64,000 nucleotides of DNA from an uncultured virus (IMG/VR IMGVR_UViG_3300044655_001510) (taxonomy: Duplodnaviria; Heunggongvirae; Uroviricota; Caudoviricetes), in the IMG/VR virus record IMGVR_UViG_3300044655_001510; one strand, written 5' to 3'. The translations under genes were made by a program, and so were the position numbers. The notes below the pieces were generated by a model. The model worked only from the letters and a program-made list of their open reading frames with translations, was not told the DNA's origin and made no database searches. Position 1 is the stretch's first letter. Every line of letters begins with the position of its first letter. Below are positions 16,618 to 64,000 of the stretch, piece after piece.

Positions 16618-16833
16618 TCAACCATCTTTTAGATCTCGCACTGGGACTACTGGCCACATTCTACCACAATTATTTGCCGGGTCGCCTTGATACCAGCATG
16701 CACCAACTGATTCCTGATTAGCGTAGTATTCCGCTTGTGTTGGTAACCGCCAACCATCACCTAAACAAAAACAATACAAAACTGCCTCGTCATAACTTAT
16801 GCCAAATTCTGATGCTTTTCCGATTTCAATCAT
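16618..16833 (-). CDS. Minimal DUF1566/Lcl-C-like domain protein (array 1)
   Basis: MIEIG..YCFCLGDGWRLPT..PVRDLK. Confidence 0.85.
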   Translation of the reverse strand: MIEIGKASEFGISYDEAVLYCFCLGDGWRLPTQAEYYANQESVGACWYQGDPANNCGRMWPVVPVRDLKDG

Positions 16834-17062
16834 CTTTTAGATCTCGTACTGGGATTACTCGATATTTTTTAGTCTCACTGTCATCACGGACTTCACCATA
16901 CCAATATTTCCACGTATTCGTGTAACCAACGATAATGCGTATTTCGTCATACGTCGGTAATCTCCAACCAACATCACCTTCAATATTAAGTGAGAAACAA
17001 TAGAAGATTGCTTCCGCCCACGTCAACTCTGCTTCGTATTCTTTTGGTGCTAGTTCAATCAT
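16826..17062 (-). CDS. Minimal DUF1566/Lcl-C-like domain protein (array 1)
   Basis: Family motifs; 8-nt ATGATTGA overlap. Confidence 0.85.
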   Translation of the reverse strand: MIELAPKEYEAELTWAEAIFYCFSLNIEGDVGWRLPTYDEIRIIVGYTNTWKYWYGEVRDDSETKKYRVIPVRDLKDD

Positions 17063-17288
17063 CTTTTAGATCTCGTACTGGGATAATAGTTCCAAGATTA
17101 GTTAATCGATCACTTCGTTCACCTGGACCGTCAGCATACCAACCGTATATGTTTCTGTTATTGAAAAATTCTTTTTGCGTTGGTAATCTCCAACCAACCT
17201 TACCATCTATATTCAAAGAAAAACAATATAACTTGGCATCCGTATACGTTAATTTTTTGTGATATTCAACAGGTGCTACTTCAATCAT
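17055..17288 (-). CDS. Minimal DUF1566/Lcl-C-like domain protein (array 1)
   Basis: Family motifs; 8-nt overlap. Confidence 0.85.
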   Translation of the reverse strand: MIEVAPVEYHKKLTYTDAKLYCFSLNIDGKVGWRLPTQKEFFNNRNIYGWYADGPGERSDRLTNLGTIIPVRDLKDD

Positions 17289-17532
17289 CTGTTAGATCTC
17301 GTACTGGGATTAACCAATATTTAATTTTATGTGAAATGTTATCAACCGTGTCATTAGAATTCCACATCCCACGAATGCCATGAACTCTTACAACTCGAGT
17401 TTCTTCTAGGGTTGGAATTCGCCAATCCCGTTTACCATCAATGTCCAATAACATAAGATAAAGTCGAAGATTAGTCACCTCGGTTTCTATCCAGTACTCT
17501 TCAGGTGCTACTTCGAGTCTTGGTTCAATCAT
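17281..17532 (-). CDS. Minimal DUF1566/Lcl-C-like domain protein (array 1)
   Basis: Family motifs; 8-nt overlap. Confidence 0.85.
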   Translation of the reverse strand: MIEPRLEVAPEEYWIETEVTNLRLYLMLLDIDGKRDWRIPTLEETRVVRVHGIRGMWNSNDTVDNISHKIKYWLIPVRDLTDD

Positions 17533-17734
17533 CTTTTAGATCTCGTACTGGAGTTACATGCAACGTATGATGATGCATACTAGCACGTTCGTCATAGCAC
17601 CAGTCTGCATACATGGTATGCGTATGGTACTCGTTGATCGATGGTAATCTCCAGCCATCACCTAGACAAAAACAGTAGAATACTGCATCCTCATATGTCA
17701 TCTCACATTCTGATCTTTTACCTATTTCAATCAT
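17525..17734 (-). CDS. Minimal DUF1566/Lcl-C-like domain protein (array 1)
   Basis: Family motifs; 8-nt overlap. Confidence 0.85.
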   Translation of the reverse strand: MIEIGKRSECEMTYEDAVFYCFCLGDGWRLPSINEYHTHTMYADWCYDERASMHHHTLHVTPVRDLKDD

Positions 17735-17939
17735 CTTTTAGATCTCGTACTGGAGTTACCGGCCAAAGACTAACTCCATGACGCAGAAAGTCGTCTTTTA
17801 ACCAACCAATGTGTCCTGGTATGTAACGCGCGGATTCCCCTTCAGTTGGTAATCTCCAGTCATCACCTAGACAAAAACAGTAAAATACGGCATCGGCGTA
17901 GGTCATTCTTGAATTTGTAGTTTCACCTATCTCAATCAT
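17727..17939 (-). CDS. Minimal DUF1566/Lcl-C-like domain protein (array 1)
   Basis: Family motifs; 8-nt overlap. Confidence 0.85.
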   Translation of the reverse strand: MIEIGETTNSRMTYADAVFYCFCLGDDWRLPTEGESARYIPGHIGWLKDDFLRHGVSLWPVTPVRDLKDD

Positions 17940-18193
17940 CTTTTAGATCTCGTACTGGAATAATAACAAGTTCAGGTTCTCCCTGATCCTCAATATAACA
18001 AAGTTCATCTGAAAACCAATAATTACCCATCCAATGGTTTGGGTCACTTGCATCATACACGTAATAAATCCATTCGTCGCTGGTAGGCAATCTCCAACCA
18101 ATCTTATCATCAATCTTCAAAACAAACAAGTACAAATCGATATTGTGGATGGTCGATTTTTTTCCAATACTCTTCCGGTGCTATCTCAATCAT
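17932..18193 (-). pseudogene. Minimal DUF1566-like gene frameshifted at an A7 run
   Basis: MIEIAPEEYW start at 18193 is 1 nt out of frame with LYLFV..WRLPT..PVRDLKDD; A6 restores the frame. Confidence 0.7.
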
Positions 18194-18458
18194 CTTTTAT
18201 ATCTCGTACTGGGATTAACAAAAACTTGGATCCAACTCGAGTATACCATTCTTCATCCAACGAATCTGCGGTAGTCCAAGGTTCTCGACTGTGAGATATA
18301 TCATTTGTGGGAGGGATTTCATTAATCCAAACATGCAGATCATAATCACTTGGTAATCTCCAATCCTGTTTGCCATCAATCGTCAAAACAAACAAATACA
18401 GCTTGATTTCTTGCCACGTACATTCAACCCAGTATTCTTCAGGTGCTATCTCAATCAT
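18186..18458 (-). CDS. Minimal DUF1566/Lcl-C-like domain protein (array 1)
   Basis: Family motifs; near-duplicate of the next gene. Confidence 0.85.
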   Translation of the reverse strand: MIEIAPEEYWVECTWQEIKLYLFVLTIDGKQDWRLPSDYDLHVWINEIPPTNDISHSREPWTTADSLDEEWYTRVGSKFLLIPVRDIKDD

Positions 18459-18708
18459 CTTTTATATCTCGTACTGGGATTAACAAAAACTTGGATCCAA
18501 CTCGAGTATACCATTCTTCATCCAAAGTATCCGTAATTGTCCATCGTTCAGCCTTGATATTCGGTATGCTAACAAACCAATCCTCTTGTTCCTCTTCGGT
18601 TGGTAATCTCCAATCCTGCTTACCATCAATAGTCAATACAAACAAATACAGCTTGATTTCTTGAAACGTACATTCAATCCAGTATTCTTCAGGTGCTAGT
18701 TCAATCAT
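18451..18708 (-). CDS. Minimal DUF1566/Lcl-C-like domain protein (array 1)
   Basis: Family motifs. Confidence 0.85.
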   Translation of the reverse strand: MIELAPEEYWIECTFQEIKLYLFVLTIDGKQDWRLPTEEEQEDWFVSIPNIKAERWTITDTLDEEWYTRVGSKFLLIPVRDIKDD

Positions 18709-18919
18709 CTTTTAAATCTCGTACTGGCATGACTCTATAAACATCAGAACGATTCCGCCATGGATCATCTTGATACCAACCCAGTAAATTGTGGTTTTCG
18801 AATTCGTCAGCTGTTGACAATCTCCATCCATCACCTAAACAAAAGCAATACATAACCGCCTCGTCATAGGTCATTTTGAATGTTGATCGTTCACCGATTT
18901 CAATTTTTGGTTTAATCAT
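18701..18919 (-). CDS. Minimal DUF1566/Lcl-C-like domain protein (array 1)
   Basis: Family motifs. Confidence 0.85.
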   Translation of the reverse strand: MIKPKIEIGERSTFKMTYDEAVMYCFCLGDGWRLSTADEFENHNLLGWYQDDPWRNRSDVYRVMPVRDLKDD

Positions 18920-19127
18920 ATTTTAAGTCTCGTACTGGGATTACATGCCAACATAGATTACGGTTAGTTTGGTCATTAAAGTTCCAAACAAAGTCTACAT
19001 TGCCGTCGAATTCTTCAATGGTTGGTAATCTCCAGCCAATCTTACCATTAACGTTTAATGAAAAACAATACATAACCGCCTCGTCGTATGTCATTCTTGC
19101 ATCTGTTGTTTCACCTATCTCAATCAT
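18912..19127 (-). CDS. Minimal DUF1566/Lcl-C-like domain protein (array 1)
   Basis: Family motifs. Confidence 0.85.
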   Translation of the reverse strand: MIEIGETTDARMTYDEAVMYCFSLNVNGKIGWRLPTIEEFDGNVDFVWNFNDQTNRNLCWHVIPVRDLKYD

Positions 19128-19434
19128 CTTTTAGATCTCGTACTGGTCTAACTAAGTTATCGTCATAACCCTTATTCTCAGGCGATGACTTGTAATCCAT
19201 ACCTTGTCGATTAAAATCTACATCAATAGCATACCCAATGTCACCTTCTTCACATGACCAGTAATACCATCTAGCAAAATCGCATCCGGGCATAGCCCAG
19301 ATACTATTCAACTCCTTAACAGTTGGCAACCTCCAACCAGTTTTACCATCTATGTTGAGAGCAAAACAATACAAACGGGCATCATCCCAGCTTGATCGTA
19401 TTTCATACTCTTTTGGTGCTATCTCAATGTTCAT
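19120..19434 (-). CDS. DUF1566/Lcl-C-like domain protein (array 1)
   Basis: SWDDARLYCFALNIDGKTGWRLPTVKEL..YYWS..VRPVR. Confidence 0.85.
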   Translation of the reverse strand: MNIEIAPKEYEIRSSWDDARLYCFALNIDGKTGWRLPTVKELNSIWAMPGCDFARWYYWSCEEGDIGYAIDVDFNRQGMDYKSSPENKGYDDNLVRPVRDLKDD

Positions 19435-19703
19435 GGTTTGTCTCTCACTGGAATTAACTTGTAGTTTGAAAATCCATGTTTAGTATGTTCGTTAAAATAT
19501 AGAACAGCTTCACTGTACCAAACAAGTTCACCGGATTGCCAACATATGCCTTTTAATTGGGTGAGTTCATAGTTAGTGGGCACCCGCCAGTCTGTTTTAC
19601 CATCAATATTCAACGAGAACAGGTAAAGACGGATTTCCTCATGCGACATACAATTCCAGTATTTTTCTGGTGCGAGTTCAAATTTTATGTCTAGTCTTGC
19701 CAT
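19431..19703 (-). CDS. Minimal DUF1566/Lcl-C-like domain protein (array 1)
   Basis: Start MARLDIKFELAP coupled by TAATG. Confidence 0.8.
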   Translation of the reverse strand: MARLDIKFELAPEKYWNCMSHEEIRLYLFSLNIDGKTDWRVPTNYELTQLKGICWQSGELVWYSEAVLYFNEHTKHGFSNYKLIPVRDKP

Positions 19704-19975
19704 TATAAGTCTCTTACTGGTATGGTTATAAACAGCGGATCTTTCCACTCATTTAATTTGTCTGGTGTAACGCAATCTAAGTCTTCCAGCAGCCAGTAAT
19801 CAGAAAAGAATTGCTTGTATTCTGATGTAAAGTCGTATATCTCGTGAAGCCATTCATCTCTCGTGGGAAATCTCCAGCCTGCCTTGTTATCGATTAACAG
19901 TGAAAACAAATATAACCTAGCATCATTAAATTCGAGTTTTTTCCAGTATTCTTCAGGTGCTATTTCAATTGCCAT
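19703..19975 (-). CDS. Minimal DUF1566/Lcl-C-like domain protein (first of array 1)
   Basis: Start MAIEIAPEEYW after AGGA RBS and sigma70 promoter. Confidence 0.85.
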   Translation of the reverse strand: MAIEIAPEEYWKKLEFNDARLYLFSLLIDNKAGWRFPTRDEWLHEIYDFTSEYKQFFSDYWLLEDLDCVTPDKLNEWKDPLFITIPVRDL

Positions 19976-20003: not shown

Positions 20004-20032
20004 ATTGTACTTAGAGATTGGTTGGATGTCAA
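20004..20032 (-). promoter_or_regulatory. Sigma70-type promoter driving array 1
   Basis: TTGACA-17-TACAAT. Confidence 0.75.
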
Positions 20033-20150: not shown

Positions 20151-20304
20151 TTAAGGCATTATCTTTTAGACAAAAAGAAACCCGAGCTAAGTCGGGTTCC
20201 TTGGGTTTCATTATCTTTTAGATTCGAAAAGATAAATACTCATAGTAAAAGATATCGGGAAATATCTTGAACTACTAATCAACGTCTATAGAGGAGACAT
20301 CAAT

Positions 20305-21495
20305 ATGACAGTATTTAGCCCAGAAAAAACACAAGAGTTTATCACGTTAGCAACTGAAAAACATGGTAATAAGTATACCTATGAAAAAGTTCAAGTTAGA
20401 GACGGGACGGGTTATAAAAAAGATAAACTGACAATCTATTGTCTGAAGCATGGTTATTTCGATCAATCATGGAATTCGCATCTTTCATCTAGTGGATGTA
20501 TTAAATGTGCACACGATAGGGTAAATGAAGCAAACACCAAAACACAGGAACAAGTTATTGCGGAATTCCAAGAAGTTCATGGGACCCGTTACAAATATCA
20601 TTTAGTGGACTATAAAAAAGGACATATACCAGTATTGATTGAATGTACAAAGCACGGTGTGTTTTCTCAAACACCATCAAATCACCTGCAAGGTGGATGT
20701 GAAACATGTTCATATGAGTTGAGATCAGAGAATCTTCGACAGGATAGAGACAGTTTAATTGCTGATTTTAATCGAATCCATAACTCGGTATATGATTATT
20801 CACTAATGGAAGATTACAAAAATGGAAATGATAAAATAACAGTCATATGTAAAAAGCATGAACCATTTAAGATTTCAATTTTAAAACATAAGGCGGGTCA
20901 GGGATGTAAAGAATGCGGGAAATTGGCAGCAGCTGATATTCGTAGATTAGACCAGAGTGTTATGTTGGAAAGATATAGAGAAGCACACGGCGATCGTTAT
21001 GGATACGACTATTTTGAGTATAAAACAGCACATACTAAGATAAAGGTAGAGTGTTTTGATCATGGTATATTTGAAATTACGGCGAGAGATCATGTTAAAA
21101 GTGGCTGTCCAAAATGTAGATTAGCTGAACAATCATCACATATTTCACATAGATGGTTGGATAGTTTGGGAATACCATTAGAAAAAGAATATAGATTCCC
21201 GCAATATAAAGGTAGACCAGTGGATGGATTTCACGTCGAATCTAACACAATCTATCAATTTCATGGTGATTATTTTCATGGAAATCCAGTAGTATATGAT
21301 GCTAACGAATATAATGCATTGGTGAAAAAGACGTTTGGTGCGATATATGAAAATAGTTGCCGCGTTGATCAAGATTTTAGAGATCTTGGTTGTAATTTAG
21401 TTATTATGTGGGAGCATGATTGGAAAATTCATGAACGAGAACAACGTGAATTACGAAAACAGCAAGTATTGGAAGAACGGAAAAATAAGCAGTAG
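20305..21495 (+). CDS. Homing-endonuclease-like protein: four Zn-binding (DUF723-like) repeats plus C-terminal Vsr/PD-(D/E)xK-type nuclease
   Basis: Repeats C.KHG.F..H..GC..C; C-terminal VDG..YQFHGDYFHG..MWEHDW. Confidence 0.8.
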   Translation: MTVFSPEKTQEFITLATEKHGNKYTYEKVQVRDGTGYKKDKLTIYCLKHGYFDQSWNSHLSSSGCIKCAHDRVNEANTKTQEQVIAEFQEVHGTRYKYHLVDYKKGHIPVLIECTKHGVFSQTPSNHLQGGCETCSYELRSENLRQDRDSLIADFNRIHNSVYDYSLMEDYKNGNDKITVICKKHEPFKISILKHKAGQGCKECGKLAAADIRRLDQSVMLERYREAHGDRYGYDYFEYKTAHTKIKVECFDHGIFEITARDHVKSGCPKCRLAEQSSHISHRWLDSLGIPLEKEYRFPQYKGRPVDGFHVESNTIYQFHGDYFHGNPVVYDANEYNALVKKTFGAIYENSCRVDQDFRDLGCNLVIMWEHDWKIHEREQRELRKQQVLEERKNKQ

Positions 21496-21531: not shown

Positions 21532-22125
21532 TTAAATAGATTTCAATTGTCGTTTAGTTACAATCTCATCGGCTAGCCCGTATGCAATTGCTTCTTCGGC
21601 TGAAAGGAAGAAATCACGTGACATATCGTGTTCTAGTTTTTCGAAAGTTTGCCCAGTGTTTTTGACATATATATTTGTTAGTAATGTATTCAATCTCAAC
21701 GTCTCAGCCATTGCAATTTTCATATCAACCGCAGTTCCTTGGTTTCCACTTGACACGCAGTGTAATAAATGTCTAGCATTTGGTAGCATAAAACGCTTAC
21801 CTTTAGTTGCTGAACTAGCTATGATAGATCCCATCGATGCTGATTGGCCCATTGTGTAACTAAAAATATCGTTAGAAATCATGGACATACAATCTACGAT
21901 CGCAAGACCACTTAACACGGATCCTCCGGGGCTATTGATATACATGTGAATGTCTTTTGTTGGATCTTGTGCTTCAAGAAATAACAATTGCGCTGTTACA
22001 GAAGCAGCCATTTGATCGTTGATATCGGTCGAAATCACAATTATGCGATCTCTGAGTAATTGTGAAAAAATATCAAAAACTCTTTCACTGTTGCTCGTTT
22101 TCTCTACTACCATTGGTACCATCAT
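21532..22125 (-). CDS. clpP: ATP-dependent Clp protease proteolytic subunit
   Basis: DIFSQLLRDRII, YINSPGG, SASMG (Ser), H, RDFFLSAEEAIAYGLAD. Confidence 0.95.
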   Translation of the reverse strand: MMVPMVVEKTSNSERVFDIFSQLLRDRIIVISTDINDQMAASVTAQLLFLEAQDPTKDIHMYINSPGGSVLSGLAIVDCMSMISNDIFSYTMGQSASMGSIIASSATKGKRFMLPNARHLLHCVSSGNQGTAVDMKIAMAETLRLNTLLTNIYVKNTGQTFEKLEHDMSRDFFLSAEEAIAYGLADEIVTKRQLKSI

Positions 22126-22331: not shown

Positions 22332-22607
22332 CTATTCTAAATCACGAACAGGGTGCACACCTAATTGATAATCATTCACACCGAACCTAGTACTGAATGG
22401 TGACAAATACTTGATGTGGTTGTTGGCGGTAACTTCAGACGACCAGTAATTTCCGGGTTCGATCAATCCTCGACCTAGCATCACATGTAGTTCAGCGATC
22501 GTAGGTAATCTCCAACCGGTCTTACCCCCAATATTAAGAGCAAAACAGAACAATCGGGCTTCGTCCCAAGTTGCCTTAATCCAAACTGGTGCTATTTCGA
22601 ATTTCAT
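22332..22607 (-). CDS. DUF1566/Lcl-C-like domain protein
   Basis: Family motifs, NYWSS. Confidence 0.85.
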   Translation of the reverse strand: MKFEIAPVWIKATWDEARLFCFALNIGGKTGWRLPTIAELHVMLGRGLIEPGNYWSSEVTANNHIKYLSPFSTRFGVNDYQLGVHPVRDLE

Positions 22608-22948
22608 GATAAATCCCTTACTGCTCTGACTGTGAATCGATTGAACTTCGGGTGTTGTCCTGACAATTGATTCATGAAATTAAATCCAAACGCAGTGACT
22701 GTGGAATCCCATGTAGTGGCAGTAGATGACCAATAGTATAGATAGTCAAAATCATTGGCAGTAGATGACCAATAGTGTAGATATTCAAAATCATACTCAT
22801 TGGGAGCGTCGTAAATATTCTGTAATTCAAAAATTGACGGTAATCTCCAACCCGTTTTACCATCGATATTAAGAGAGAAACAGAACAATCGTGCATCATC
22901 CCAGTTGGCTTGGATCTCAGTTGATTTAGGTGCTATTTCGAATTTCAT
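22604..22948 (-). CDS. DUF1566/Lcl-C-like domain protein with internal 13-aa duplication
   Basis: APKSTE..WRLPS..(YWSSTA)x2..VRAVR. Confidence 0.85.
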   Translation of the reverse strand: MKFEIAPKSTEIQANWDDARLFCFSLNIDGKTGWRLPSIFELQNIYDAPNEYDFEYLHYWSSTANDFDYLYYWSSTATTWDSTVTAFGFNFMNQLSGQHPKFNRFTVRAVRDLS

Positions 22949-24793: not shown

Positions 24794-25084
24794 ATGAACA
24801 TTGAAATAGCACCAACGGTGATAACAGCTAACTGGGACGATGCCAGGTTGTATTGTTTTTCTCTTAATGTTGATGGTAAAACTGGATGGAGATTACCAAC
24901 CAGATTGGAATTACTCGAAATATATCAGTCTGGTAGATATGTACGATTAAATTTTTGGTGTTGGTCTGCTACTGAGTACAATGATGTTGGAGCTTGGGTT
25001 AAACTATTTGGAAATGGTAGAGACGATGTCCGTCTTAAAGAGACCAGCCACGGTCTAGTTATGGCTGTGAGGGATTTGGTATGA
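24794..25084 (+). CDS. DUF1566/Lcl-C-like domain protein
   Basis: Family motifs, CWSATEYN. Confidence 0.85.
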   Translation: MNIEIAPTVITANWDDARLYCFSLNVDGKTGWRLPTRLELLEIYQSGRYVRLNFWCWSATEYNDVGAWVKLFGNGRDDVRLKETSHGLVMAVRDLV

Positions 25085-25398
25085 ACATTGAAATAGCACC
25101 AGAAGAATATCGAAAATACGAGTTGACGTGGGATGAAGCAAAGATGTATTGTTTTAGTCTTAATATAGATGGTAAGGTTGGATGGAGATTACCAACAATT
25201 GACGAACTGATAGGCATTCGTGATACGTTTTACTTAGACTTTAATGACCCATCAGTTTGGGTGTGGACTATTGAATGTACCGACGATGATCAGGCGACTC
25301 AAGTTGATTTAACTGATTTTGAGACGTTGACGTATTACAAAACCGATGGTGATTCGGTTTGGGCTTATCCTGTGAGGGATGTATGTACTTTGAAATAG
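25081..25398 (+). CDS. DUF1566/Lcl-C-like domain protein
   Basis: Family motifs. Confidence 0.85.
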   Translation: MNIEIAPEEYRKYELTWDEAKMYCFSLNIDGKVGWRLPTIDELIGIRDTFYLDFNDPSVWVWTIECTDDDQATQVDLTDFETLTYYKTDGDSVWAYPVRDVCTLK

Positions 25399-25631
25399 CA
25401 CCCAAATCAACAGAGATAGAAGCCACTTTGGGTGAAGCTAGGATGTATTGCTTTTCTCTTAATATAGATGGTAAAGTTGGATGGAGATTACCTACAGGAG
25501 AAGAACTAAACGAGATTTACGAATCAGAAAATGAGTATGCAACCACTTGGTATCATTGGACTGCAGACGATGATGTGGAGAGTGATGGCAGACTTTATGT
25601 TAGACCTATTCGAGATCTAAAAGATAATTGA
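25383..25631 (+). CDS. Minimal DUF1566/Lcl-C-like domain protein
   Basis: Start MYFEIAPKSTE. Confidence 0.85.
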   Translation: MYFEIAPKSTEIEATLGEARMYCFSLNIDGKVGWRLPTGEELNEIYESENEYATTWYHWTADDDVESDGRLYVRPIRDLKDN

Positions 25632-27768: not shown

Positions 27769-28062
27769 ATGAACTTTGAAATAGCACCTAAATCCACTGA
27801 GAGTCAATTAACATGGGATGATGCCCGTTTGTATTGTTTTGCTCTCAATATTGATGGTAAGACCGGTTGGCGTTTACCCACTAAAGCAGAGCTAGTTGAG
27901 ATATTTCAGTCGGCAAATGACTTTAGGGGATTTTGGTACTGGTCATCTACTGAGTACAATGGCAAGAATGTATGGGTTCAAACATTCAACAATGGTTTTC
28001 AAAGTCTACTCGGGAAATACGATAACGTCTCATACGTTAGAGCCATTAGGGATTTATCATGA
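27769..28062 (+). CDS. DUF1566/Lcl-C-like domain protein with VR-like C-terminus
   Basis: WYWSSTEYN..W.Q.FNNG.Q..YVRAIR. Confidence 0.9.
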   Translation: MNFEIAPKSTESQLTWDDARLYCFALNIDGKTGWRLPTKAELVEIFQSANDFRGFWYWSSTEYNGKNVWVQTFNNGFQSLLGKYDNVSYVRAIRDLS

Positions 28063-28370
28063 AATACGAAATAGCACCTAAATCCACTGAAACGAAACTC
28101 AATTGGAATGATGCCAGATTATATTGCTTCTCTCTTAATATCGATGGTAAGACTGGATGGAGATTACCGACCAAGGACGAATTGAACGAAATATACGAAT
28201 CAGAAAATGATTTTGAAAACCGTTGGTACTGGTCCTCTACTGAGTACGATGACAGATACGCCTGGGGTCAGCAGGCTTGGAGTCAGGATTTGGGTCAGTA
28301 TGGCAAGGGCATCGATGGTAAAAACGGCGTCAACTACGTTAGAGCCATTCGAGATCTAAAAGATAATTGA
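28059..28370 (+). CDS. DUF1566/Lcl-C-like domain protein with VR-like C-terminus
   Basis: WYWSSTEYD..AW..NYVRAIR. Confidence 0.9.
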   Translation: MKYEIAPKSTETKLNWNDARLYCFSLNIDGKTGWRLPTKDELNEIYESENDFENRWYWSSTEYDDRYAWGQQAWSQDLGQYGKGIDGKNGVNYVRAIRDLKDN

Positions 28371-31204: not shown

Positions 31205-31402
31205 TTACTGTTGGTCAGTAGCGCACACAATTTTGATTGTGTTAGGATCAAGCACTTCATGAACTTGTGCTTGGATGATTGCTCTACCTGCTTCTGGGGC
31301 CTTGCAGTAATCCGCAACTACTTCTGATAATATTAACTCTGTTGTTTTAATGGCAGCACAACCTGACATTAATAACGCAAGAACAACTACTAGTTTCTTC
31401 AT
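31205..31402 (-). CDS. Small lipoprotein
   Basis: MKKLVVVLALLMSGC lipobox. Confidence 0.7.
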   Translation of the reverse strand: MKKLVVVLALLMSGCAAIKTTELILSEVVADYCKAPEAGRAIIQAQVHEVLDPNTIKIVCATDQQ

Positions 31403-32142
31403 TTTGATATCTCCTGTAAATTCCTGACGTAGTTAGTAATAGAATGGTTTTCATAGAAGTTAATCTGACCTTTCTTAATACCAACCCAAAATCCTTTTAA
31501 TCTGTCAATCACTCTACGCAACCAACTCATCACTGCTACATGTCCATCGTGGTCCATGTAATTTAATTCACCATGATGAATATAACTGCCTATTGGATTT
31601 CTAGTAACGATATCCGAGTTATTAACCCATCTATGATGTTCGATATTCAAACTATTCATAAACTCAACGTATTCAGCATTACCGACTCTTGGGCTACCGA
31701 ATGTGAATAGCACTGGATTTTGTAGATAAGTTAATTGATGGCATCTTGACGTAATCAAGGTTGCCATCGCTGCACCTAAACTATGACCCGTACACCAAAG
31801 TTGTCTATTGCTTCCAAACTTTTTCAATAAGAAAAGTAAATCAGGCCAAACGTTGTCTACATATTGTTTAAATCCATGATGAACCAATCCATGATGGCTG
31901 CTACTTGGAACTAGTTTAAATTCTAAATCTGTCTTTATGTCATTCCATTGAGTCGGTTGTGTACCACGGCATACAATGATAGCATCGCTACCATTCCAAA
32001 GGAAATAGGCTTCTGAATCGTTCGTTGATAGAAAAATACTATCATAACCAAAGTCGTTAAACAGTTGGTTATCGTTATATGCTAAATCGCTCAGTTGAGC
32101 CATTAGTAGTGCTTGCTTGTATACTGTTAACTGTGAAATCAT
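31399..32142 (-). CDS. Class 3 lipase
   Basis: CRGT, VHHGF, GHSLG, TFGSPRVG, DIV, H. Confidence 0.9.
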   Translation of the reverse strand: MISQLTVYKQALLMAQLSDLAYNDNQLFNDFGYDSIFLSTNDSEAYFLWNGSDAIIVCRGTQPTQWNDIKTDLEFKLVPSSSHHGLVHHGFKQYVDNVWPDLLFLLKKFGSNRQLWCTGHSLGAAMATLITSRCHQLTYLQNPVLFTFGSPRVGNAEYVEFMNSLNIEHHRWVNNSDIVTRNPIGSYIHHGELNYMDHDGHVAVMSWLRRVIDRLKGFWVGIKKGQINFYENHSITNYVRNLQEISK

Positions 32143-34707: not shown

Positions 34708-34955
34708 TGTTATCGGCTGAGGATTGCACTATGATACTATATGCTGTTATTTCGGTGGTTTCGATGTTGGTTGGTTATGCTTTGTCAATTTCATCTATCA
34801 TGAAACAATGTGATATTAATACAGAATTACGAGTGCAAATCCTCGAAACGTTAAACCGTGAACGTAAGTTAATTGACGAATACCGCGAGTTCGTATTAGA
34901 AACCAAAACTGTAAATTCCCAATTGCAAAAGCTACTTGATAGCTTAACCAAGTGA
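34704..34955 (+). CDS. Hypothetical membrane protein
   Basis: N-terminal TM segment, coiled coil. Confidence 0.55.
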   Translation: MMLSAEDCTMILYAVISVVSMLVGYALSISSIMKQCDINTELRVQILETLNRERKLIDEYREFVLETKTVNSQLQKLLDSLTK

Positions 34956-35410
34956 ACTTAATATTCCTGGATTTTGACGGGGTATTAAACAATACCGCAT
35001 CCTTGGCTGAAGGTATTCACCTTTGTCCAGAAAAGGTTATCATGGTTAGAAACTTGTGCATCGAGTTAGATTGCCAGGTAGTTATCAGTTCATCATGGCG
35101 CGTCATACACACGTTGGCTGAAATAAAGGAATTACTTTACCGTACCGGTTTTCATTGTAGAACGCGTATTATCGATACAACTCCAATAAATGGTATTATG
35201 GATGCTGGATTGAATAGATATCGACGTGGATACGAGATAGAAAAGTGGTTATGTTCTAAGGCAGAAGATTACAACTATGCGATAATCGATGATATTGACG
35301 AGTTCTTACCATATCAAAAATCACGGTTTGTCAGAACAAACGATCATACGGGTATAACATCCGATGACATTTTCAAAATTAAACAAATTTTAACGAGGGA
35401 GACCAAATGA
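34952..35410 (+). CDS. HAD-family phosphatase (RNA-repair-associated type)
   Basis: FLDFDGVLN, ISSSWR, RGYEI..W, IIDD. Confidence 0.85.
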   Translation: MNLIFLDFDGVLNNTASLAEGIHLCPEKVIMVRNLCIELDCQVVISSSWRVIHTLAEIKELLYRTGFHCRTRIIDTTPINGIMDAGLNRYRRGYEIEKWLCSKAEDYNYAIIDDIDEFLPYQKSRFVRTNDHTGITSDDIFKIKQILTRETK

Positions 35411-36051
35411 GTATTCCAGGTTTACCAGATATGTCAGTTGCAACAAAAGCGTTGTCAGCTGATATGGATTCACTCACTGCAAAAGCCGGTAGTGGATGTG
35501 ATATATTCGGAACATTAGGCACTATGGTTAGTATCGAAACTTCTGCGTTGTTTGCCAATATACAAAAAGGTATAACAGAAGCGATGAAGACTATTGGTAA
35601 TGTTATAAAAGGTATTACTGATATGATCGATGCGGTTGCAGGTAAAGTTCAGGCATTCATGGCTAAGATTGGTGAACTAGCCAGTGCCGCGATTGCTAAA
35701 ATTAATGCGGTTATTGCCAAGATTGGATCAATGATCACCGGTGCTATCAATACATTAAAATCAGTTATCTCAGATATCATTGGTGTGATTGATGATATGG
35801 CTTCTGTACTTGGTAAAGCAGTTCGTGCGTTGATTGCTAAAGGCTGTTCTTTAGTTATGGGCGCAGCATCGGCTATCGGTAGTGGTGTTTCTGATATGAT
35901 TGATTCAATGACTTCAGAAGATCCATTTCCAGCAGAAGCAAGTATCAAAGCAGCTGCAGATAAAGCATTGGGTTCGGTCGGCGCTTCAAGTACAGCATTA
36001 GGCGATTCAGGCTTTGACTCAAACGTACTAGGCGAACTGGACGCAATCTAA
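35407..36051 (+). CDS. Hypothetical helical protein upstream of PAAR
   Basis: Ala/Ile-rich amphipathic repeats; coupled to PAAR. Confidence 0.7.
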   Translation: MSIPGLPDMSVATKALSADMDSLTAKAGSGCDIFGTLGTMVSIETSALFANIQKGITEAMKTIGNVIKGITDMIDAVAGKVQAFMAKIGELASAAIAKINAVIAKIGSMITGAINTLKSVISDIIGVIDDMASVLGKAVRALIAKGCSLVMGAASAIGSGVSDMIDSMTSEDPFPAEASIKAAADKALGSVGASSTALGDSGFDSNVLGELDAI

Positions 36052-36356
36052 TGGCTAGAGGCGTAGCACGACTAGGAGACACAACACATGGTACTTGTTC
36101 ACATCCATCACATGGACCAAAAGAAGTAACTGGTAAGATTATCACTGCATCAGGTAATGTATCTGCGAATAATCGCAAAGTTGCTAGATTGGGTGATACC
36201 GTTGAAACGGATTGTGGACACTACAGTATTATTATCACTGCATCCGGTAATAGCAGTGATAATAACAGACACACCGCGAGACTCGGTGATAAGATCGGTG
36301 ATGGACCTTATGATGCAGTAATCATAACAGCATCACCAAATGTTTTTTGTAATTAA
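36051..36356 (+). CDS. PAAR-repeat spike tip protein
   Basis: Three ARLGD repeats with His/Cys ligands. Confidence 0.9.
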   Translation: MARGVARLGDTTHGTCSHPSHGPKEVTGKIITASGNVSANNRKVARLGDTVETDCGHYSIIITASGNSSDNNRHTARLGDKIGDGPYDAVIITASPNVFCN

Positions 36357-42398: not shown

Positions 42399-42565
42399 AC
42401 CTTATCTTTTAGATTTGGTACCTTATTTTTTAATTATCTTTTAGATTGGGTATTGTGTACATTATCTTTTAGAAAACAGTTGACAGTCAATTATCTTTTA
42501 GATTGGGTATTGTGTACATTATCTTTTAGAAATACCTTGACAGTCAATTATCTTTTAGCTACAAT
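42399..42565 (+). repeat. Six tandem ATCTTTTAG boxes at ~29-bp period, ending in a sigma70 promoter
   Basis: ~58-bp duplicated unit; TTGACA-17-TACAAT at 42537-42565. Confidence 0.85.
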
Positions 42566-48658: not shown

Positions 48659-48877
48659 ATGAAACCTGCATTGATTAATTATACGCAATATACCAAGATG
48701 GTCGAAGAAGCTGCTTATTACCGGTGGTTAAATGGTAGTTTGGATACTGAAGCCAATTGGCATGCCGCAGTATCCGAAATAGCAAGCCAGTACAGAATTA
48801 AAACAAAGGTTGATCCAACAGAGATTCCGCGCAAGTTAACTGCGGCTCTTGCGGAAAGCCAACTTGCTTTAAAATAG
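48659..48877 (+). CDS. DUF2934-like small protein
   Basis: EEAAYYRW..G....NWHAA..EI. Confidence 0.55.
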   Translation: MKPALINYTQYTKMVEEAAYYRWLNGSLDTEANWHAAVSEIASQYRIKTKVDPTEIPRKLTAALAESQLALK

Positions 48878-49538
48878 CAGTAAGCATTGCGAATCGTTCA
48901 CGACGAGTACCTGTTGATTTTAACAGTGCTGCTGTAAATGCACCTTGATAGGTACCATCTAAGAATGCATCAGCAGATGTTTGTTCGTCTTTGCATCCAG
49001 ACCAACAGATAACTTCTCTAGTACACGAGACATTGAATTTAACAACTGTTGGTTCTGAATTTAAAACGCCTGCGCTGATGTAACGATAAGCAACATTTGG
49101 TTTTAAATCCCTAGTTGCAGTACCTGAGTGACAGCAATCAAGTAAGCATTCGATTTCAACACCAGGTGCAAACTGGCAGAATATGTCATGCAACTCGTTA
49201 TCCATGATGAAGGTATTATTCCAACTGCCATCTGGGTTGATTAAATCAAATGGACAAAGCACTTCCATTAAGTCATCGGTTTCAGTGCCATCGTTGCATG
49301 GAATTTGTGAACCATGACCAGAATAGTGGAACATAAACTTATCACCGGCTACTAGTTCTTTACTGATTTCTAGCAACTTAGTCATAATATTGTGTTTGGT
49401 TGCTTGGTCTTCAATCAGTTGAACTGTTTGATAACCATTAGCTGCGCACACAGCTAGTATATTATTGCTGTCGTTTACGCAACCGCGTAGCGGTGCAACG
49501 TTGTAGCTATTAATAGCTACCGTTAATAATTTTTTCAC
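48798..49538 (-). CDS. Metacaspase (peptidase C14)
   Basis: LRGCVND, HYSGHG, LCPFD, LDCCHSG, SGCKDEQTSADA, GAFT, QEPQL. Confidence 0.92.
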   Translation of the reverse strand: MKKLLTVAINSYNVAPLRGCVNDSNNILAVCAANGYQTVQLIEDQATKHNIMTKLLEISKELVAGDKFMFHYSGHGSQIPCNDGTETDDLMEVLCPFDLINPDGSWNNTFIMDNELHDIFCQFAPGVEIECLLDCCHSGTATRDLKPNVAYRYISAGVLNSEPTVVKFNVSCTREVICWSGCKDEQTSADAFLDGTYQGAFTAALLKSTGTRRERFAMLTAILKQVGFPQEPQLTCAESLLDQPLF

Positions 49539-49711
49539 GCACAAACCCTCCATAGTTTTAGTACCTATAGGTATTTATTGGGTGGTTGTTAAATACTCTT
49601 AGTAATGATGCGAGGCACGTTAGTGCCGAGCCATTGTGAGTATATGAATATGCGAGAGCCGATAGGCTCTAGCCATTGTGATTGATTATCTTTTAGGACA
49701 TAAATACAGAC

Positions 49712-56381: not shown

Positions 56382-56624
56382 ATGATAGAAGTATCGCCAA
56401 TAGAATTACGCCCAACCCATAATATATCACGATCCGATGCAGAATTGCATCTATTAAAATTAGATATTGGATGGCGACTGCCGACTAGAAGTGAACTTAA
56501 CAACATCATGGCTGTTATCCACGGTGAATCGCCAACCATAATGCATGCCTGGGTTGCTGAAGACTCGATTCATAGTGTTGGGTTATGCCCACTTGTACCA
56601 GTGAGAGATATTGACGATGATTGA
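56382..56624 (+). CDS. Minimal DUF1566-like protein (array 2)
   Basis: GWRLPT..PVRDIDD. Confidence 0.8.
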   Translation: MIEVSPIELRPTHNISRSDAELHLLKLDIGWRLPTRSELNNIMAVIHGESPTIMHAWVAEDSIHSVGLCPLVPVRDIDDD

Positions 56625-56820
56625 GATTGGGAAGTACTATAACAAACGAATCACGTATGACGAGGCAATCTTATATTGTTTTTGCTTGGGTGATGGTTGG
56701 AGATTGCCATCTGAAGCCGAATACATTGAGTATGAATTGCAAGGTTCTTGGTATGTTGATAGAATCTCACAAGTTAGTACGTTTTTTGTTAGACCAGTGC
56801 GAGATATAAAAGATGATTAA
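56617..56820 (+). CDS. Minimal DUF1566-like protein (array 2)
   Basis: 8-nt overlap; family motifs. Confidence 0.85.
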   Translation: MIEIGKYYNKRITYDEAILYCFCLGDGWRLPSEAEYIEYELQGSWYVDRISQVSTFFVRPVRDIKDD

Positions 56821-57034
56821 ACTGCAAATGGGTAAACCAACCATGTCGAGAATCACATACGAGAATGCACAGTTCTACATATTCTGCCTAGGTGATGGCT
56901 GGAGAATGCCAACTCTGAATGAGTGCATAATATATCAAATGTACGGTGATTGGTGGTATACTGAACGACGTTGTTACAGTGTAGATGATGTATACCTTTT
57001 ACAACCTGTTCGCGAGGTACCTGAAGATGATTGA
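56813..57034 (+). CDS. Minimal DUF1566-like protein (array 2)
   Basis: 8-nt overlap; family motifs. Confidence 0.85.
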   Translation: MIKLQMGKPTMSRITYENAQFYIFCLGDGWRMPTLNECIIYQMYGDWWYTERRCYSVDDVYLLQPVREVPEDD

Positions 57035-57287
57035 AATAGCCACTGAGGATCTTGTAGCAATGCTTACCTTCGACGAAGTAAAACTGTATTTGTTTTCTTT
57101 AGGTGATGGATGGCGATTGCCAGCAATCACTGAGGTAGTTCTATGCCGACAAAAACATCCCATTCTTGGACTAGCCGGAACGCTGTGGAGTGATGTTTGG
57201 TTTAATTTTATTCAAGCACAAACCCATCCAGGTAGAGGTAGATCCTCACACTTATTAATCCCAGTACGAGATCTAAAAGATGATTGA
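57027..57287 (+). CDS. Minimal DUF1566-like protein (array 2)
   Basis: 8-nt overlap; family motifs. Confidence 0.85.
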   Translation: MIEIATEDLVAMLTFDEVKLYLFSLGDGWRLPAITEVVLCRQKHPILGLAGTLWSDVWFNFIQAQTHPGRGRSSHLLIPVRDLKDD

Positions 57288-57495
57288 AATAGCACCAATG
57301 GACCGTGAGATCCTCCTAAATTACGAGGAAGCAATGATATATTGCTTTTCGTTAAACATCGATGGTAAAATAGGTTGGCGATTACCAACCAAAGATGAAT
57401 GGTACGATAACGATCAATTAATGGGTTGTTGGTATATTGGTAGACCCAGTAAAGGTAAATGGTTGCTTGCACCAGTACGAAGCATTGACAATTAA
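57280..57495 (+). CDS. Minimal DUF1566-like protein (array 2)
   Basis: 8-nt overlap; family motifs. Confidence 0.85.
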   Translation: MIEIAPMDREILLNYEEAMIYCFSLNIDGKIGWRLPTKDEWYDNDQLMGCWYIGRPSKGKWLLAPVRSIDN

Positions 57496-57915: not shown

Positions 57916-58149
57916 ATGATAATTGAAGAATTTGGGATTGAACTAGCACCACTGTCAGAATCCGCGATGTCATATACCGAAGCAAAAATGTATTGCTTCA
58001 CATTAACGTATGATGATAAGATCGGTTGGAGATTACCAAGCTACGATGAATGGGAAATCATTCCACATATCGTCGGATGGCACGAAAACAAGTTGGCAAG
58101 CGATAGTACTTTTCCACGACGAGTTATGCCAGTGAGAGATTTGAGATGA
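57916..58149 (+). CDS. Minimal DUF1566-like protein
   Basis: Family motifs. Confidence 0.85.
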   Translation: MIIEEFGIELAPLSESAMSYTEAKMYCFTLTYDDKIGWRLPSYDEWEIIPHIVGWHENKLASDSTFPRRVMPVRDLR

Positions 58150-58229
58150 TTGAAATAGGTGAACGAACAAAATTCGAAATGACGCATGATAATAACAACT
58201 TCTTAACAAACAACATAATGGAGTTACGC

Positions 58230-58794: not shown

Positions 58795-58990
58795 CATTCA
58801 CAACAGGTATACAAGTCAACTACCCGACGACTAAAGATCGTCGGGCTTGCTTACTCCCATGACTAACTACTGGTGATTTAGTAGATCTCTCGATTTTAGA
58901 AGTCATTTTCAGTAAAGCCTCTGGGATTACTCCCACATCGCCTGTTGCGTGCGATGATAATTTGGTTCCATAATTGAGTCTTTGCCCTTC
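58795..58990 (-). ncRNA. Predicted TnpB omega/reRNA scaffold plus flank-derived guide
   Basis: By analogy with TnpB systems: overlaps the tnpB 3' end, ends at GTTGAC (58815), guide from flank TTGTATACCTGTTGTGAATG; 5' boundary uncertain. Confidence 0.5.
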
Positions 58991-60237
58991 ATGGAGAATA
59001 TTTGTGGCAGCATTCAAGTCTCTGTCATGGACTTCGCCACAAGAAGGGCATTCCCATTCACGAGTTGCTAAATCCAATGATTCGAGTTTATGGCCACAGC
59101 AAGAACAGGTCTTGCTACTTGGATAAAACCTGCCTACTTGTTGAACAAGAACGCCAGCCCATTCCGCTTTATATTTGATCATTTCTGAAAGAGTAGACCA
59201 AGCGATTTCGTGGATTGCTCTGCTGAGTTTCCGGTTCTTAAGTAAATTACTGACTGCCAAATCTTCTAAATAAATCACGTCATTGGTAGCCACTAGGTAT
59301 TTACTAAGGATATGATAATACTCATTTCGCTGTCGCGTAATCTTGGAATACAAACGAGCCACCTGAATCCGTAGTTTCTCGTGGTTTTTGCTGCCTTTGG
59401 TAGTTCTTGCAAACTGCTTTTGTTTGCGTTTCAATAGCTGCTTGGTTTTCGCATGGTATAGCAACGCATCTGGTTTTAAAAATCGAAGACCACTTGAAGT
59501 AATCATCAAATCTTTAATACCTAAATCAAAACCGACTTCTCGATTTTTGTAATCTTGGGTGGGTACATCTGTTTCTATTAGCACAGATGCATAATACCGA
59601 TCATCTGGATTTTTAGGAACGGTTATTGATTTAACAACTGCACCTTCAGGGATTGGTCTATGGATAACTGCTTTTACTTCTTTTAATTTTGGAAGTTTAA
59701 TGGCATTATCTAGTACTTTGGTTCCTCGACCAGGGGTTCGATATGACTGACGTCCATGTTTTGATTTGAACCTTGGCTCTTCTACTCGTTTACCTTTTCT
59801 GTTTCCAGCACGGGATTTGAACATGTTATCATATGCAGCTGCGAGGTCAGCTGATGCGCCTTGTAAGGCATTCATGTCTACTTCGCAAAGGAATTCCAGT
59901 TCTTTCTTTAACGGGGTAATGAGTTTATTGACCGCGAATCCATTCAGGTGTGGTTCACCTGCCAAATATCTTCGTTCATTTTCTGCTTTAAATCGGTTAT
60001 AGATCAGTCTCTTGCAACCAAATGTCTTCCCAATCAGAATTTGTTGCTCTGATGTCGGGTATATACGATATTTGATTGCAATTAATCTTTTCATGTCTGT
60101 ATTTAGCATTTGACAAAGAACGACTTATGGATTAACGTATGGTTTTATTACTTGATGGGGAATTAAACATGAATAGCGAATTACCACACGCATTCCTCCC
60201 GGCGACTAAAGATCACCGGGTTTCCTGCGCGAATCAG
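58815..60237 (-). mobile_element. Non-autonomous IS200/IS605-family (IS1341-like) element
   Basis: Subterminal hairpins CCCGACGA-CTAAAG-ATCGTCGGG (right end, ...GGGTAGTTGAC) and CCCGGCGA-CTAAAG-ATCACCGGG (left end); tnpB only, no tnpA; adjacent TTCAT as probable TAM. Confidence 0.8.
58820..60094 (-). CDS. tnpB: RNA-guided endonuclease TnpB
   Basis: KYRIYPT HTH, GFDLG (RuvC-I), LEDL (II), CSCC/CPSC Zn ribbon, DRDLNAA (III). Confidence 0.95.
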   Translation of the reverse strand: MKRLIAIKYRIYPTSEQQILIGKTFGCKRLIYNRFKAENERRYLAGEPHLNGFAVNKLITPLKKELEFLCEVDMNALQGASADLAAAYDNMFKSRAGNRKGKRVEEPRFKSKHGRQSYRTPGRGTKVLDNAIKLPKLKEVKAVIHRPIPEGAVVKSITVPKNPDDRYYASVLIETDVPTQDYKNREVGFDLGIKDLMITSSGLRFLKPDALLYHAKTKQLLKRKQKQFARTTKGSKNHEKLRIQVARLYSKITRQRNEYYHILSKYLVATNDVIYLEDLAVSNLLKNRKLSRAIHEIAWSTLSEMIKYKAEWAGVLVQQVGRFYPSSKTCSCCGHKLESLDLATREWECPSCGEVHDRDLNAATNILHEGQRLNYGTKLSSHATGDVGVIPEALLKMTSKIERSTKSPVVSHGSKQARRSLVVG

Positions 60238-63337: not shown

Positions 63338-63571
63338 ATGGCCATCGAAATAGCACCAGAAGAATATCACAAAGAAGAAATAACCTACTCGGAAGCATTG
63401 GTCTATTGCTTCTCCCTTGATATCGATGGTAAGATAGGATGGCGATTACCGACAGATCAAGAATACGTCTTTGAACTACCAGACCGGTACAATGTACTTT
63501 TTCAAAATTGCAATTACTTTGATCATAATACAGCAACCTGCATACCAGTACGAGATGTAAAAGATGATTGA
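63338..63571 (+). CDS. Minimal DUF1566-like protein (array 3)
   Basis: Family motifs; promoter TTGACA-16-TATAAT at 63277-63304. Confidence 0.85.
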   Translation: MAIEIAPEEYHKEEITYSEALVYCFSLDIDGKIGWRLPTDQEYVFELPDRYNVLFQNCNYFDHNTATCIPVRDVKDD

Positions 63572-63869
63572 AATAGCACCTAAAGAAACTGTAGCAAAAC
63601 TTACGTGGGAAGATGCCAGACTCTACTGCTTCGCACTCAATGCAAACAACAAAACTGGATGGCGTTTACCTACCCTCGAAGAACTCTATTACGTCAGAGA
63701 AAACTTAGATTATAAATTCGGTCATGATTACTACTGGTCGTCTGAGTCTACAGCAGATAGAGCTAATTGCGTTTTCATGGGAGGCTACAAGTATCCTAGT
63801 AAGGATTGTACAAGAAACTCACCAACCACTTTTACTTTCTACGTAAGAGCAGTCAGAGATATAACATGA
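63564..63869 (+). CDS. DUF1566-like protein (array 3)
   Basis: YYWSSE..YVRAVR. Confidence 0.85.
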   Translation: MIEIAPKETVAKLTWEDARLYCFALNANNKTGWRLPTLEELYYVRENLDYKFGHDYYWSSESTADRANCVFMGGYKYPSKDCTRNSPTTFTFYVRAVRDIT

Positions 63870-64000
63870 ACATCGAAATTGCACCAAAAGAAACTGAGGT
63901 CATAGCCAATTGGGAAGATGCCAAACTCTACTGCTTCGCACTTAATACAAATAACAAAACTGGTTGGCGTTTACCCACTAAAGAAGAACTTAATGAGATC
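63866..64000 (+). CDS. DUF1566-like protein (array 3, partial)
   Basis: MNIEIAPKETEVIANWEDAKLYCFALNTNNKTGWRLPTKEELNEI. Confidence 0.85.
   Translation, partial: MNIEIAPKETEVIANWEDAKLYCFALNTNNKTGWRLPTKEELNEI

Follow-up and report, generated by a model that had tools for sequence, protein, structure and literature searches.

A tandem array of lectin-like genes with a near-identical joint in an uncultured giant lake-water phage, probably remodelled by homologous recombination at gene boundaries

Large phages harbour numerous small genes with no assigned role. Turnover of such gene sets is known in detail mainly for the T4-type phages, in which intergenic elements of about 100 bp, the PeSLs, combine a sigma-70 promoter with a terminator stem-loop. 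Recombination at these elements deletes, inserts or replaces whole small non-essential genes, and mini-circles have been shown (PMC2839356, in the part of that source available to us). In poxviruses, so-called genomic accordions change tandem gene copy number by recombination, with homogenisation of the arrays (PMC6115191 and PMC9973261, likewise in part). With regard to diversity-generating retroelements (DGRs), the available portion of one survey reports that DUF1566/Fib_succ_major targets account for 14% of DGRs, about half being short single-domain proteins (PMC5758913). Described here is an array of 14 small paralogous genes that lies within a 64,000-nt stretch of DNA (the window) from IMG/VR record IMGVR_UViG_3300044655_001510, belonging to an uncultured giant lake-water phage of about 330 kb. 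It is probably a set of tandem paralogues that homologous recombination at gene boundaries lengthens and shortens, and not an integron. Literature searches on DUF1566 in combination with phages or paralogues revealed no description of such arrays in the library searched, returning only DGR papers and unrelated genome reports, and those on tandem paralogues in jumbo phages found only unrelated plant and animal papers.

Array anatomy and the conserved joint

The array comprises 14 open reading frames (ORFs) of 67–105 amino acids (aa), arranged head to tail between positions 19975 and 16618 of the minus strand (Table 1). An earlier reading of the window, made from the letters alone (the sequence-only reading), had described such an array, with divergent gene bodies linked by a near-identical junction, and both features are borne out. 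With up to three mismatches allowed, the joint pattern CCAGTACGAGATCTAAAAGATGATTGA is matched 14 times in the window, whereas 100 dinucleotide-preserving shuffles gave both a mean and a maximum of 0. Alignment of the 14 proteins gives a mean column identity of 37%, each being 29–47% identical to the product of gene 1, and the invariant residues are confined to a Y..L helix, a WR core, one W and the C-terminal PVRD. Eleven of the joint matches are on the minus strand (16618–19146) and three on the plus strand (at 56794, 57261 and 63545), in keeping with the recurrence that had been proposed for 56598–57290 and around 63545. The stop and start codons of successive genes had also been said to overlap by 8 nt, and this is true of 11 of the 13 internal joints, ten of which read ATGATTGA and one ATGATTAA (18912–18919, where the joint exceeds the three-mismatch limit and is therefore uncounted above). 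It does not extend to the first two, as genes 1 and 2 are joined by TAATG with a 1-nt overlap (at 19703) and genes 2 and 3 by ATGA with a 4-nt overlap (19431–19434). The gene family is also wider than first noted, with a hidden Markov model (HMM) built from the 14 proteins identifying 38 members amongst the 745 stop-to-stop ORFs of the window.

A single promoter had been placed at the head of the array, and the candidate has gained in credibility. Both of its hexamers and their 17-nt spacing are retained, with changes to the spacer sequence, in two relatives: G002, an IMG/VR contig of 327,256 bp that is 92% complete and syntenic with the window at roughly 84–97% nucleotide identity, and the more distant L014. 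Inside the array, promoter-like sites are about as frequent as chance predicts (19, with 18.4 expected). Given a strong, conserved promoter at the head and internal sites at the level of chance, it is likely that the array genes form one coupled operon. The terminator-like hairpin upstream of this promoter lies between two copies of a 12-mer motif, at 20158 and 20210, that is considered further below.

The joint tract, of 27–37 nt, encodes the C-terminal strand PVRDLKDD of one protein and then the N-terminal strand MIEIAP of the next, and only 8 of 27 nt are read in two frames. Conservation at its synonymous sites, the comparison that the sequence-only reading had proposed, is marked. Within the 14 tails the proline codon is CCA in every case (61% in genome usage), the valine codon is GTA in 12 (32%), the arginine codon is CGA in 12 (14%) and CTA accounts for 8 of 11 leucines (18%); the arginine of the internal WRLP core is encoded by the preferred AGA in 10 of 14 genes. 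When window and G002 are pooled, a count in which orthologues appear twice, 8-nt joints use CGA in 32 of 43 cases and CTA in 27 of 30, whilst 4-nt ATGA joints encode the same R-D-L residues with AGA or AGG in 21 of 23 and with TTA or TTG in 14 of 17. This different spelling of the same residues points to each joint type being a nucleotide 'allele', with no protein requirement behind it. A degenerate DNA search of IMG/VR that admitted any codons for VRDLKDD followed by a stop recovered family genes only with the GATCTAAAAGATGATTGA spelling, and yielded solely fragments of same-clade phages plus one locus (L044) in which the HMM found no family member. Collectively, the codon data show a degree of joint conservation beyond that which protein or overlapping-frame constraint would account for. 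When six 81-nt joint regions were folded as single-stranded DNA, no common hairpin was found, with z-scores of 0.22 to 1.33 for five of them and −0.88 for one.

Gene content among relatives and exchange at the joint

Four versions of the array that share the same flanks were compared: those of the window, G002, L018 and L013, all of which are metagenome assemblies. In the letters of Table 1, the order is A B C D E F F' G H I J K L M for the window, A B C D* n1 E/D F G H J P1 P2 K n2 n3 L M for G002, ..B C J P1 P2 K L M for L018 and A B C I* J P2 K.. for L013. The order of common genes is unchanged throughout, and the versions differ by whole genes. P1 and P2 are found between J and K in G002 and L018, with P2 alone at this position in L013. 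Gains and losses are internal (C–J, J–K and K–L), and the first genes, A, B and C, are retained across the versions. Each of the four breakpoints examined lies inside the identical joint tract, with one gene before the tract and another after it, and this tract measures at most about 37 nt. The J>K joint of the window is itself a hybrid, as K begins with the variant that P1 carries at its own start in G002. Thus the proposal that the joint is a site of whole-gene exchange is upheld by the comparison of cassette order, and, as gene content differs in all four versions, the fixed array that the sequence-only reading had named as incompatible with it is not what is observed.

Exchange is not confined to whole genes. 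The chimeric genes D*, E/D and I* switch partner at the conserved GDGWRLP core, E/D of G002 consisting of the C-terminal half of gene 4 joined to the N-terminal half of gene 5. A more distant relative (L014/L015), whose flanks are 75–80% identical, carries a 7-gene array with the same joint. Here the joint codon is GAC in 4 of 5 L014 joints, as opposed to GAT in 11 of 12 window joints, and such a lineage-specific synonymous variant is what concerted evolution predicts.

The process by which such changes would arise can be outlined as follows. Because the joint tract is nearly identical at every boundary, the homologous-recombination machinery of the phage, presumably of the RecA/UvsX type (G002 carries a RecA-like gene, E 5e-12), could pair any two of them. 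Unequal exchange between paired boundaries would delete or duplicate whole genes, and exchange in other conserved tracts would generate chimeric ones. The joint carries the start codon of the next gene, overlapping the preceding stop (ATGATTGA), and would also supply its ribosome-binding region, such that every product of exchange would remain in frame and translationally coupled. The genes themselves would probably share one transcript with coupled translation, and the same exchanges would homogenise the joints by concerted evolution. What sets the locus apart would be a recombination substrate that lies within a stop/start overlap, with exchanges giving intact, coupled genes.

Several observations weigh against this reading. 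As every version compared is a metagenome assembly, skipping during assembly at a repeat of 27–37 nt is possible. No paralogue pair exceeds 77% amino-acid identity, and neither does any cassette common to two arrays, hence there is no sign of very recent duplication or of recent copying between arrays. A deletion near 58149–58190 on the plus strand, where G002 has three more cassettes, has its break within the body of a gene instead of at a joint, leaving the first 38 nt of the cassette joined to the downstream promoter region. The synonymous sites of the joint may be kept by motif function, start-site context or gene conversion. Finally, loss of genes from a larger ancestral array could account for most of the differences. 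With respect to the suggestion that the array is expandable, contraction is therefore the better documented part and gain the lesser one, so that 'contractible' may be the more apt description.

Of the other explanations, the one that fares best, although it is considered unlikely, is that the differences are artefacts created by assemblers jumping between identical joints, dropping or reordering cassettes as they do so. All of the sequences are of metagenomic origin, and a hybrid joint would look alike whether produced in a cell or by an assembler. The read-level view of cassette order comes from four runs, in each case as Logan contigs (k=31), and these break at every joint; the joints listed from them have sides of 23–57 nt with 88% likeness, and may derive from paralogues. 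Nevertheless, the identical tract is no longer than about 37 nt, a length below that of typical short reads and of the k-mers used in final assembly. Furthermore, P1 and P2 recur at the same place in the G002, L018 and L013 contigs, possibly independent assemblies, and skipping alone cannot produce the chimeric genes or the cassettes that lack a window counterpart.

Very unlikely is an integron-like or nuclease-driven process, in which a dedicated enzyme would recognise the joint or the 12-mer and excise and insert cassettes as circles, possibly between arrays and between co-infecting phages. Such a process might account for the presence of the same joint in G002 arrays that are more than 100 kb apart (116–119, 157–161, 230–232 and 324–326 kb), and for the resemblance of the joint to a motif that overlaps the stops of unrelated genes. 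The phage also has several homing-endonuclease genes, and an HNH-type endonuclease gene adjoins the array promoter, being replaced at the same site in G002 by a much diverged 492-aa version. It was in this respect, in likening the array to an integron, that the sequence-only reading found no support. No match to the tyrosine recombinase family PF00589 was found in the 92%-complete G002, a search for which the control was matched in 14 of 14 genomes, nor was any resolvase or serine recombinase found in that contig, and the 65 window ORFs scanned (49 with Pfam and 16 with PHROGs) include neither a tyrosine recombinase nor a resolvase. The joints lack an attC-like hairpin, common cassettes keep their order with changes that are internal, chimeras break also at the GDGWRLP core and in the 5′ start region, and no near-identical cassette occupies two sites. 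An integron proper was rejected on the grounds of the missing PF00589 and resolvase matches in G002 and the lack of attC-like hairpins.

A fixed tandem family, its joint kept solely for the two terminal strands it encodes and for the 8 nt read in two frames, with no special recombination, accords with those two features but is the least likely reading, given that the two-frame part covers just 8 of 27 nt, that rare CGA occurs in 12 of 14 tails at single-frame synonymous sites against 14% usage, that 4-nt joints spell the same residues with other codons, and that the four locus versions differ in gene content.

Protein family, further arrays and a genome-wide motif

Seven of the 14 array proteins match the Pfam family Lcl_C (DUF1566, PF07603), although just one, the product of gene 3, does so above the curated cut-off (E 3.6e-10, 40.6 bits against 34.9), the other six falling below it. 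Gene 14 has a weak match to the related lectin-fold family FGE-sulfatase, and one member of a subfamily of about 97 aa weakly matches the C-termini of adhesin_Lcl and the FimD tip adhesin; no NCBIfam match was obtained for four of five family members scanned. An AlphaFold2 model of the gene 13 protein, based on an alignment of 114 family members, has a pLDDT of 92.7. Its top PDB match is the C-terminal domain of Legionella Lcl (8q4e; probability 0.99, TM 0.62, E 0.034), the next being poxvirus A33 and snake-venom C-type lectins. Amongst viral proteins, the best match is to a DUF1566 protein from an uncultured phage (probability 1.00). As no structure match of this model reaches an E-value of 0.001 or better, the fold assignment rests on profile and structure evidence jointly, and by these each array gene is predicted to encode one minimal C-type-lectin-like Lcl_C/DUF1566 domain. 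The conserved parts of this domain are both terminal beta-strands and the WRLP core. Entropy is 1.6–1.7 bits over the N-terminal 40 and C-terminal 12 residues and rises to 3.07 bits in the hypervariable middle, a loop of 16–72 residues. The array proteins may constitute a hard-wired set of binders that operate within the infected cell.

Orthologous pairs from the window and G002 (n = 8) have ratios of non-synonymous to synonymous substitution rates (dN/dS) of 0.03–0.71, which indicates that the array genes are working protein genes. Gene 8 is the one frameshifted member, with an A7 run near 18163 where G002 has A6; contig pieces spanning 17929–18206 show no difference from the window in two runs (X1 and X2), and the gene may be a pseudogene or a slippage-prone site.

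The family HMM, which finds 38 copies in the window, gives 83 matches in G002. Amongst public proteins, a word-indexed search matched 560 clusters, all metagenomic, with family members also on contigs of 256 kb and 271 kb, and a full HMM scan matched 14,655 representatives. Top matches of the latter (P0121–P0268) contain 2–17 tandem domain copies per chain. Multi-domain Lcl_C/DUF1566 examples (P0129, P0132 and P0135) include chains of 3,600–5,900 aa, as well as a protein of four domains that has a lipoprotein-like leader.

Beyond the main array, the window harbours several other groups of family genes (Table 1). In the second array, the gene at 57027–57287 has no counterpart in L001 according to a BLAST map. 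At the site of the third, the first gene of G002 ends in the motif form GATAAT, with no family gene directly after it. The two-gene array of the 97-aa subfamily corresponds to a hybrid in G002 with its crossover in the conserved 5′ start region, and a family array at 57916 has one gene in the window as opposed to four in G002.

The joint is related to a motif that pervades the genome. With 169 copies, CTAAAAGATAA outnumbers every other 11-mer of G002, and its joint variant CTAAAAGATGA has 49. The corresponding 12-mer, CTAAAAGATAAT, occurs in 139 exact copies, 102 of them intergenic in a genome that is about 89% coding by crude gene calls, and together with its reverse complement it is the most over-represented word of the phage. 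The joint differs from it by a single base, an A to G change that creates the ATG of the next gene. Between same-strand genes, forward copies sit on the end of the upstream gene, their own TAA serving as the stop in 11 of 30 cases, and reverse copies lie 8–9 nt or about 30–40 nt before the next start. Family genes at array ends often finish with the exact motif in frame (GAT CTA AAA GAT AAT TGA), and others stop at its TAA in a different frame; from this difference in frame it follows that conservation there concerns the DNA, not the encoded peptide. In L014 the first cassette has a leader (GGAGACCTAAAAATGATT) that resembles the joint, and a role of the joint tract as a ribosome-binding region would fit this resemblance. 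Copies in reverse orientation lie just downstream of a TTGACA-like hexamer in 21 of 139 cases against a 7% background; the notion that the 12-mer is a mere spacer of sigma-70 promoters was rejected, as it fits these 21 copies only. Inverted pairs account for 21 cases. In its position over stop codons, and in its likeness to the joint, the 12-mer may represent a new regulatory or processing signal of this phage group. Sites in the window include 20158, 20210, 25617, 28356, 42433–42547, 53148, 57509 and 63318, and six reverse copies stand in tandem at 42401–42558. In the 77–101 kb region of G002, a conserved block of promoter and leader (TTGACA-17-TAGAAT, then CCACCTTAACAAAGCACTACGGAG), whose spacer carries the 12-mer, is repeated about 23 times, and these copies are probably a set of strong early promoters.

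As for the wider setting, the window has a GC content of about 38% and no tRNA gene was found in it; its genes include those for tail fibres, RnlA, DNA ligase, ClpP, several HNH/homing endonucleases and TnpB. G002 contains 482 genes by crude count. A set of 50,697 GenBank phage records contained no DNA match for the array and no tblastn match for gene 3 or the gene at 28059, and the best match of RnlA, to a Ralstonia jumbo phage, has an identity of 40% only. The counterpart of TnpB lies elsewhere in G002, near 172.5 kb, and in L014/L015 it is inserted beside the downstream flank of the array, positions which indicate that TnpB is mobile within the clade. A GC-rich intergenic element of 22 nt, GCGAGCACCGCTAGGTGCGAGC, occurs in both orientations, with 11 copies in the window (four or fewer mismatches) and 32 in G002. 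Its variants are partly compensatory in appearance (CAC..GTG and TCC..GGA), which suggests a conserved hairpin. Accessory genes that are unexpected in most phages are also present, and are listed with the other features in Table 1.

Table 1. Positions of the array genes and of other features in the window
Feature	Position	Strand	Remarks
Candidate sigma-70-like promoter, array head	20004..20032	-	TTGACA-17-TACAAT, 11/12 consensus positions; function presumed
Terminator-like hairpin followed by T run	20175..20202	-	Upstream of promoter; 11 pairs, 5 G-C
Gene 1 (A)	19703..19975	-	90 aa; ends IPVRDL; found in G002 and L013
Gene 2 (B)	19431..19703	-	90 aa; weak Lcl_C match, E 0.0012; dN/dS 0.25 vs G002
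Gene 3 (C)	19120..19434	-	104 aa; full Lcl_C domain; dN/dS 0.08
Gene 4 (D)	18912..19127	-	71 aa; variant joint ATGATTAA at its end
Gene 5 (E)	18701..18919	-	72 aa
Gene 6 (F)	18451..18708	-	85 aa; dN/dS 0.48
Gene 7 (F')	18186..18458	-	90 aa; tandem paralogue of gene 6 (71% aa identity); not in G002 array
Gene 8 (G)	17932..18212	-	Frameshifted; intact 86-aa counterpart in G002
Gene 9 (H)	17727..17939	-	70 aa; dN/dS 0.03
Gene 10 (I)	17525..17734	-	69 aa; missing in G002 and L018; N-terminal half within chimera in L013
Gene 11 (J)	17281..17532	-	83 aa; dN/dS 0.22
Gene 12 (K)	17055..17288	-	77 aa; J>K joint hybrid
Gene 13 (L)	16826..17062	-	78 aa; structure modelled by AlphaFold2
Gene 14 (M)	16618..16833	-	71 aa; array end; tail GATGGTTGA; dN/dS 0.71
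Second array, 5 genes	56382..57495	+	8-nt overlaps; 80/67/73/86/71 aa vs 80/67/81/74/75 in G002
Third array, at least 3 genes	63338..64000	+	Runs off window end; joint match at 63545
Two-gene array, ~97-aa subfamily	27769..28370	+	ATGA overlap; single hybrid gene in G002
Two-gene array	22332..22948	-	ATGA overlap
Three-gene array	24794..25631	+	Last gene ends GATCTAAAAGATAATTGA, the exact 12-mer in frame
HNH-type endonuclease gene	20305-21495	+	PHROG 559/681; divergent from array promoter; counterpart L002 3028-4506 (-)
TnpB/IS605 OrfB gene	58820-60109	-	Cas12f1-like TNB, OrfB_IS605, HTH
ClpP protease gene	21532-22125
Caspase-family peptidase gene	48798-49553
PAAR protein gene	36051-36356
Class-3 lipase gene	31399-32142
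RNA-repair HAD domain gene	34952-35410
GCGAGCACCGCTAGGTGCGAGC element sites	14780, 20093, 22218, 23017, 23962, 28382, 30083, 30129, 43859, 51635, 53818

Comparison with known systems

The locus resembles an integron in that small genes, apparently without promoters of their own, run in one direction behind what may be a single promoter, with a content that varies among relatives. Of the four integron features compared, however, three are absent, and the fourth consists of the single 11-of-12 promoter with internal sites near the expected 18.4. No IntI was found in G002 or in the scanned window ORFs, none of the six folded joint regions shows an attC-like hairpin, changes are internal with none at the promoter-proximal site, where A, B and C are kept, and the phage cassettes are paralogous, whereas those of integrons are unrelated.

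With DGRs, as far as the available part of the source describes them, the array shares the DUF1566 C-type-lectin scaffold. A DGR was nonetheless rejected here, as the 92%-complete G002 has no match to the reverse transcriptase family PF00078 (no search aimed at template and variable repeats was made), and diversity takes the form of dozens of paralogues (77% identity or less) with loops of 16–72 residues and does not stem from mutagenic retrohoming. This ties the lectin scaffold of DGRs to a second route to diversity, that of paralogue expansion, and provides binders whose targets are directly testable. As a doubtful extension, the clade might have exchanged DGR-style hypermutation for a germline repertoire of about 80 separately translated mini-lectin binders, the motif-derived boundary acting as a dedicated shuffling signal. 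If this were so, the signal would allow cassettes to be excised, duplicated and exchanged between arrays and co-infecting phages, and a phage population would amount to a combinatorial binder library directed at host targets that vary, for example surface structures or proteins of defence.

The multi-domain Lcl_C/DUF1566 proteins offer a further parallel, having 2–17 tandem repeats per chain and short linkers at the position of the joint (e.g. ...RDLVKSKLPFEIA...). In the phage, by contrast, the domains are separate cistrons with overlapping stop and start codons, such that the arrays look like this architecture split into its parts. The fused form P0129 has, as judged by eye, a lipoprotein-like leader, whilst the array proteins of the window begin with MIEIAP or MIEIG.

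Poxvirus accordions, in the portions of the two sources available, are similar in that a large DNA virus alters tandem gene number by recombination. There, recent identical copies arise under acute selection, whereas the copies seen here are old and diverged, with only their boundaries homogenised.

The closest known process would appear to be the modular shuffling mediated by PeSLs in T4-type phages. In both, on the available description of PeSLs, short conserved sequences flank small genes in plastic regions of a large lytic phage, and exchange leaves expression signals intact; in both, it is at the conserved element that close relatives differ, as is the case for 4 of 4 breakpoints here. 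Unlike a PeSL, the phage tract is 27–37 nt long, lies within a coding stop/start overlap, and has neither a promoter above chance nor a stem-loop, and the cassettes are all paralogues of one fold. The locus is an unusually clean natural case, in which a single fold has expanded to the 83 matches seen in a 327-kb relative.

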